A stretch of 890 nt of DNA, taken from Escherichia coli. GTDB lineage: Bacteria; Pseudomonadota; Gammaproteobacteria; Enterobacterales; Enterobacteriaceae. The notes beneath the pieces are model-generated. The model made no database searches, was not told the DNA's origin, and was given only the letters and a program-made list of their open reading frames with translations. The position numbers were made by a program, and so were the translations under genes. This document shows positions 1 through 116 of this stretch, in pieces (position 1 is the stretch's first letter; each line of letters begins with the position of its first letter). The stretch lies in NCBI RefSeq assembly GCF_003334335.1, contig NZ_QOWQ01000141.1; one strand, written 5' to 3'.

Positions 1-106
1 TGAATCAGGAGAGCAGATTACCCCCTGGATCTGATTTCAGGCGTTGGGTGTGGATCACTATTGCACCGTTCGTGACACGGAGGATTCAGTATTCCCCGGA
101 CAACTC

Positions 107-112
107 AGGAGG
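107..112 (+). promoter_or_regulatory. Shine-Dalgarno (AGGAGG) for the CDS starting at 117
   Basis: Exact AGGAGG hexamer with a 4-nt spacer (AAAT) before ATG 117. Confidence 0.6.
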
Positions 113-116
113 AAAT

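Follow-up and report, generated by a model that had tools for sequence, protein, structure and literature searches.

The apparent leader of a zinc-ribbon protein gene of Escherichia coli is very probably an IS100 transposition junction

The window, i.e. the whole stretch of 890 nucleotides of E. coli DNA that was analysed, holds one intact Cys-rich gene, here called zn2, the 3' remnant of a second gene, zn1, and parts of two different insertion sequences (an IS100 and an IS66-family element) that bracket zn2 (Table 1). The loci used for comparison include the IS100-carrying locus of strain EC11 (L001), the uninterrupted locus of strain E2865 (L002) and a metagenome contig with a more distant homologue (L007); other loci are numbered likewise where their coordinates are given.

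Table 1. Features of the window and of its junction with IS100
Feature	Position	Strand	Basis or comparison
IS100 left (istA-proximal) end, terminal 77 bp	1..77	-	0 mismatches to L001 6001-6077
Palindrome arm, 10+10 nt	5..14	-	fold of the istA strand of L001 5994-6014
IS100 left terminal inverted repeat	50..77	-	both element ends read in L001
zn1 3' remnant	78..129	+	identical to intact L002 from 78 onwards
Shine-Dalgarno AGGAGG of zn2	107..112	+	4 nt before ATG 117, within the zn1 coding remnant
Cys-rich gene zn2, 144 aa, stop TAA 549-551	117..551	+	PGAP, Pfam, homologue N-termini
IS66-family element, left end	814..890	+	exact point of divergence from L006, which lacks the element

The product of zn2 (WP_001221615.1, a 'zinc-ribbon domain-containing protein', identical as annotated in L002 and L006) contains two Pfam domains, DUF7828 (E = 9e-31, residues 4-89, model positions 2-86 of 87) and Zn_ribbon_11 (E = 2e-18, residues 93-128), and with both domains at strong E-values it is one of the DUF7828 plus Zn_ribbon_11 proteins of E. 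coli genomic islands. The same two domains are found in zn1 (encoding a 'putative zinc ribbon protein' of 133 aa where it is intact, L002 5654-6055). The two genes are tandem paralogues, with 31% identity in an alignment along their whole length, and they share an architecture of an N-terminal CxxC...PWFEH module (DUF7828) and a C-terminal CxxC-x9-CxxC zinc ribbon. A resemblance of the zinc-ribbon proteins to CoiA_N was not significant (E = 0.39). NCBIfam and PADLOC gave no match for three proteins of the cassette (zn1, zn2 and their Gp2-family neighbour) and PHROGs gave none for zn1 or zn2, the Gp2-family neighbour alone matching, to families of unknown function. A literature search yielded no study of DUF7828 or Zn_ribbon_11.

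The order of the genes in the native cassette, part of a genomic island, was conserved in L002 and in all ten further loci that code for the exact zn2 protein (L008-L017; the look-up by exact protein gave uninterrupted loci only): an AlpA-type regulator, Hha, a small ORF, a YagK/YfjJ ('inovirus Gp2 family') gene, zn1 and zn2. The last two genes overlap by 13 nt (ATGCGAATTCTGA, from ATG 117 to TGA 129 in the window), with the zn1 stop codon 10 nt after the zn2 ATG, and we found the same overlap in L002, in 10 of the 10 further loci and between the 46%-identical homologue and its zn1-like neighbour in L007. Of 5426 complete E. coli genomes, 3043 contain the intact junction, judged by coverage of at least 80% of a 96-nt probe that spans it, and zn1 and zn2 are both annotated at the probe site. 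In its intact form the zn1-zn2 pair is like the translationally coupled, overlapping gene pairs of bacterial operons, having an overlap and a Shine-Dalgarno sequence inside the upstream gene that are conserved down to 46% protein identity. We infer that zn1 and zn2 are co-transcribed in the intact cassette and that the overlap probably couples translation of zn2 to termination of zn1; ribosomes would initiate on zn2 at the strong Shine-Dalgarno sequence that the gene has for itself.

To the right of zn2, a 78-codon ORF (window 551-787, plus strand, MVASGAVCGDAFPG...) begins with an ATG that shares bases with the stop codon of zn2 (TAATG). It is called by some gene callers, not by RefSeq in the loci that were read; it has no Pfam match and no counterpart is called at the same position in the distant L007. 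The IS66-family element that follows begins with GTAAGCGTACAG, the start of its tnpA lying about 15 nt beyond the window. In L001 the element spans 6813-9101 (2289 bp), ends with ...CTGTACGCTTAC and carries tnpA, tnpB and tnpC; the lack of a target duplication around it there points to a deletion next to it.

On the left side, the uninterrupted L002 and the window diverge exactly at the edge of IS100. The element finishes with ...CCGTTCGTGACA at position 77, and zn1 survives as the third base of a Thr codon followed by 16 codons (GGFSIPRTTQEEICEF) and its stop codon, TGA 127-129, all in frame 1; the intact zn1 of L002 ends with ...CQTGGFSIPRTTQEEICEF and a stop codon. Across the junction (marked by a slash) L002 reads ...CAGACCGGAGGATTCAG... 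and the window ...GTGACA/CGGAGGATTCAG... We conclude that positions 1 to 116 are, very probably, a transposition junction and contain no native leader: IS100 inserted in the 3' end of zn1, and zn2 starts at ATG 117. The ambiguity about the start site is an ordinary by-product of a transposon insertion. The exact junction GTGACA/CGGAGG was found in none of the 5426 complete E. coli genomes, the species-representative genomes and the metagenome contigs. The three closest genomes (EC11, MS14385 and DFL.5) have GTGACA/GGAGG and show a further difference at position 338. Judged from these sequences, the junction in the window would represent either an independent insertion 1 bp away (with a duplication CGGAG or CGGAGG) or a 1-bp change of the junction.

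IS100 belongs to the IS21 family, encodes the transposase IstA and the helper ATPase IstB, and was first described in Yersinia pestis. The copy in strain EC11 (L001 4124-6077) is 1954 bp long and carries istA (annotated as 'IS21-like element IS100 family transposase') and an 'IS100kyp' istB on the opposite strand. It is 100% identical over 1954 bp to IS100-annotated copies on plasmids of E. coli and Salmonella, and it has matches in 145 Yersinia plasmid records. Over the terminal 77 bp the window shows no difference from the element itself; the insertion site alone is particular. The terminal repeats of IS100 are imperfect (TGTCA...TGACA): of the 28 positions in the reverse complement of window 50-77 (TGTCACGAACGGTGCAATAGTGATCCAC), 21 agree with the far end of IS100 (TGTCAACGACGGATGAAAAGTGATCCAC), which reads TGTCAACGACGG...GTGATCCAC in L001 and is an imperfect inverted repeat of window 50-77. 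Target duplications of 5-6 bp, mostly of 5 bp, flank 12 of the 13 IS100 copies examined, and the remaining copy (L022) has a 1-bp match only.

Within the IS100 end the hexamer TGGATC recurs by eye at window 26-31; a repeat search of window 1-130 gave nothing at threshold, this hexamer alone recurring. By analogy, the second copy is consistent with the L1/L2 repeat organisation described for the ends of IS21-family elements (PMC10122671). In the related loci the ATG of istA is located 10 nt left of window position 1 and the gene reads leftwards, away from zn2. Just upstream of this start we observed a palindrome, GCTCTCCTGA-A-TCAGGAGAGC, whose second arm falls just outside the left edge of the window and holds the Shine-Dalgarno sequence of istA. 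On the istA strand, L001 5994-6014 folds into a hairpin of 9 bp in which the GGAGAG ahead of the istA AUG is buried, and according to this fold the hairpin may limit translation of the transposase.

Another observation was that IS100 occurs at five different sites within the 0.8-kb zn1-zn2 cassette, always in the same orientation, with the istA end facing zn2. The target duplications are CTGAC (L003 2124/4077) and CCAGAC (L005 1581/3534), each in 8 complete genomes, GGAGG (L001 4124/6077 and L006; 3 complete genomes), GCAAA (L004 2124/4077; at least 1 complete genome) and, predicted for this window and present in 0 complete genomes, CGGAG or CGGAGG. Three of the five sites (CCAGAC, CGGAG(G) and GGAGG) fall within 12 bp (CCAGACCGGAGG, window 78-89). 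No target motif is shared among the 13 IS100 flanks, which include those of eight copies on unrelated plasmids, and the searches for insertions were seeded with the junction of the window, an ascertainment that favours nearby insertions. We doubt that IS100 has a true, orientation-specific hot spot in the 3' end of zn1. If it had one, the target would be selected by something other than sequence, e.g. local DNA structure or a bound protein, and the clustering represents a small lead on the choice of targets in the IS21 family. In a weaker variant of the same idea, the left end of IS100 would rewire zn2 by providing it with start codons or with a cryptic promoter that faces outward.

The consequences for the expression of zn2 can be derived from the arrangement. 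The remnant of zn1 has no start codon in the window and a stop within the IS100 end (TGA 73-75) closes frame 1, so the coupling to zn1 would be lost here: unlike in coupled gene pairs, the upstream frame is decapitated and no ribosome would arrive from zn1. The promoter of the operon would be separated from zn2 by an insertion sequence in the opposite orientation, and the insertion probably cut zn2 off from it. Transcripts of zn2 would then have to originate in IS100 or pass through it, on the antisense strand of the element, so that expression is probably weak or nil; zn2 is intact, and we hold with moderate confidence that it is poorly transcribed.

These considerations bear on two suggestions of the original prediction. 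It proposed possible co-transcription of the gene with an upstream gene. This probably holds for the native locus, where zn1 is on the same strand and overlaps zn2; in the window the usual route to it is blocked by IS100 (1954 bp in the related loci), which separates the two genes. It also took TGA 1-3 for a possible stop of the upstream gene. This TGA is indeed in a different frame (frame 1), but it lies within the left end of IS100, of which the neighbouring istA is on the opposite strand, and the 57-codon open stretch on the plus strand that ends there is antisense within istA and unannotated. The true stop of the upstream gene is TGA 127-129, downstream of the zn2 ATG.

The earlier failure to recognise a convincing sigma70 pair in 1..116 was reproduced, as a scan with the sigma-70 consensus yielded 0 sites there, 0 promoter-like sites on both strands of the whole window and none in the whole IS100 or the native cassette. 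The scan is insensitive, given that it found no promoter for istA either, and counts as weak negative evidence. Rfam gave no match in 1-116, its sole matches (E about 0.5) being to eukaryotic families elsewhere in the window, and the RNA folds of two segments (60-140 and 1-140) and of the native junction were no better than those of shuffles (z -0.6 to -1.1); both results speak against a structured RNA leader or riboswitch. Downstream, a weak terminator-like hairpin (window 707-735, plus strand; 6 pairs, 3 of them G-C, then a T-rich run) is found about 155 nt after the zn2 stop. From its sequence this hairpin could be the end of the cassette transcript; terminator-like sites are no more frequent in the window than in shuffles.

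The insertion might also have activated zn2 instead of silencing it, either from an outward promoter at the edge of IS100 or from a hybrid one that spans the junction. Fusion promoters formed by elements of the IS21 family are known, the outward -35 hexamer being supplied by the right inverted repeat (review PMC9330008), and the window is alike in that an IS end directly abuts an intact gene with its own ribosome-binding site. The uniform orientation of the five insertions and the insensitivity of the promoter scan would also fit. However, zn2 adjoins the left, istA-proximal end of IS100 and not the right one, which carries the outward -35 in this family; matching hexamers are absent, no -35/-10 pair is present in 1-116 or anywhere in IS100, and in two of the five cases IS100 destroyed the beginning of zn1 or of zn2, unlike what would be expected from selection for activation. 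We consider an activating insertion unlikely and favour the reading in which IS100 disconnects zn2 from its operon.

On this latter reading, a complete IS100 and the left half of zn1 would be located upstream of the window in the source genome. The left flank is expected to consist of the body of zn1, ending in ...CAGACCGGAG or ...CAGACCGGAGG, followed by the full IS100, and which of the two endings applies would depend on the length of the duplication. Alternatively, positions 1-77 could be a solitary end fragment of IS100 that was left by a deletion. The window contains just 77 bp of the element, the island is rich in partial IS copies (for instance, fragments of IS3, IS5 and IS1 in L001) and the IS66-family element on the other side lacks a target duplication. 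Against this, the full 1954-bp IS100, with both istA and istB, is present in 6 of the 6 related loci that have IS100 in this cassette, and the window begins 10 nt from the position of the istA start in these loci. A solitary fragment is thus quite unlikely in our estimate, and we retain the edge of a complete element as the explanation of positions 1-77.

The start codon of zn2 was considered in the light of this junction. As the original prediction stated, translation shows that the frame of the Cys-rich gene (frame 3) has no stop between position 3 and ATG 117-119 (NQESRLPPGSDFRRWVWITIAPFVTRRIQYSPDNSGGN-M) and that it includes a GTG at 48-50, 23 codons before the ATG. The same frame contains another GTG, at 72-74, which the earlier list lacks. 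Such an open frame is no more than expected by chance, since 38 stop-free codons were obtained in 13.5% of the mononucleotide shuffles of 3-116 and stops are likewise lacking in 32% of all frames of 114 nt when both strands of the window are counted. The predicted duplex with the 3' end of 16S rRNA is far stronger for ATG 117 (-10.3 kcal/mol) than for the rival starts (about 0 to -2.5 kcal/mol), i.e. GTG 48 (-2.5 kcal/mol), ATG 138 (+0.1 kcal/mol) and GTG 72, which lacks a Shine-Dalgarno sequence. In an alignment of 8 orthologues plus paralogues M1 is invariant, and position 8, which corresponds to ATG 138, is M, L or I. In the L007 homologue an in-frame TGA precedes the ATG by 8 codons, with no start codon in between, and in the native E. 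coli locus the zn2 frame is closed 37 codons upstream. PGAP places the start at ATG 117 in L001, L002 and L006; all three strains with the junction closest to that of the window, EC11 (L001) among them, carry this call. Because of the strength of the Shine-Dalgarno sequence, the Pfam alignment from residue 4, the invariant M1 and the upstream in-frame stops, we regard it as settled at the level of sequence that zn2 starts at ATG 117, as annotated. The stop-free frame and GTG 48 are accidents of the IS100 sequence.

Translation from the second Met (ATG 138, M8) with ATG 117 left unused is very unlikely. This codon is in frame and just 7 codons downstream, but it lacks a Shine-Dalgarno sequence, the 46%-identical homologue and the zn1 paralogues have Leu or Ile in its place, whereas M1 does not vary, and the DUF7828 model is already aligned from residue 4. 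When the N-termini of homologues were aligned, as had been proposed earlier for settling the start, all of them began at the equivalent of ATG 117 and not of ATG 138.

A side observation concerns the gene calls at two other insertions. In L003 (4048-4437, zn1, VWITIAPFVT...) and L004 (4050-4478, zn2, VDHYCTVRD...) PGAP/RefSeq annotates N-termini that are coded by IS100. The start codons called there are the GTGs equivalent to window 48 and 50, and the native start was destroyed by IS100 in both loci; these calls are probably artefactual, chimeric genes. An N-terminally longer protein in the window, starting at GTG 48, at GTG 72 or outside it and having a chimeric, IS100-encoded stretch as its first 15-23 residues, would be compatible with the frame that is open from position 3 and with such calls of IS-borne GTG starts where the native start has been removed, but it is extremely unlikely, as both GTGs are located in IS100, a Shine-Dalgarno sequence is lacking before them, the extension is absent from the uninterrupted locus and thus from the 3043 genomes with an uninterrupted junction, the frame is closed upstream in the native locus and in L007, the Pfam domain and all full-length homologues with an intact frame begin at M1, and about 14% of the shuffles contain an open frame of that length.

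All parts of this locus are of known kinds: a familiar insertion sequence, a conserved overlapping gene pair and the DUF7828/Zn_ribbon_11 domain family. The finding is an ordinary one and matters mainly for annotation. It illustrates that an abutting insertion sequence can by itself place an in-frame GTG and a run of codons without a stop ahead of a gene, and an annotation pipeline does call IS-encoded N-termini in two related strains. For a functional study of the DUF7828/Zn_ribbon_11 pair the uninterrupted locus would be preferable, since the copy of zn2 described here has probably been cut off from its operon.
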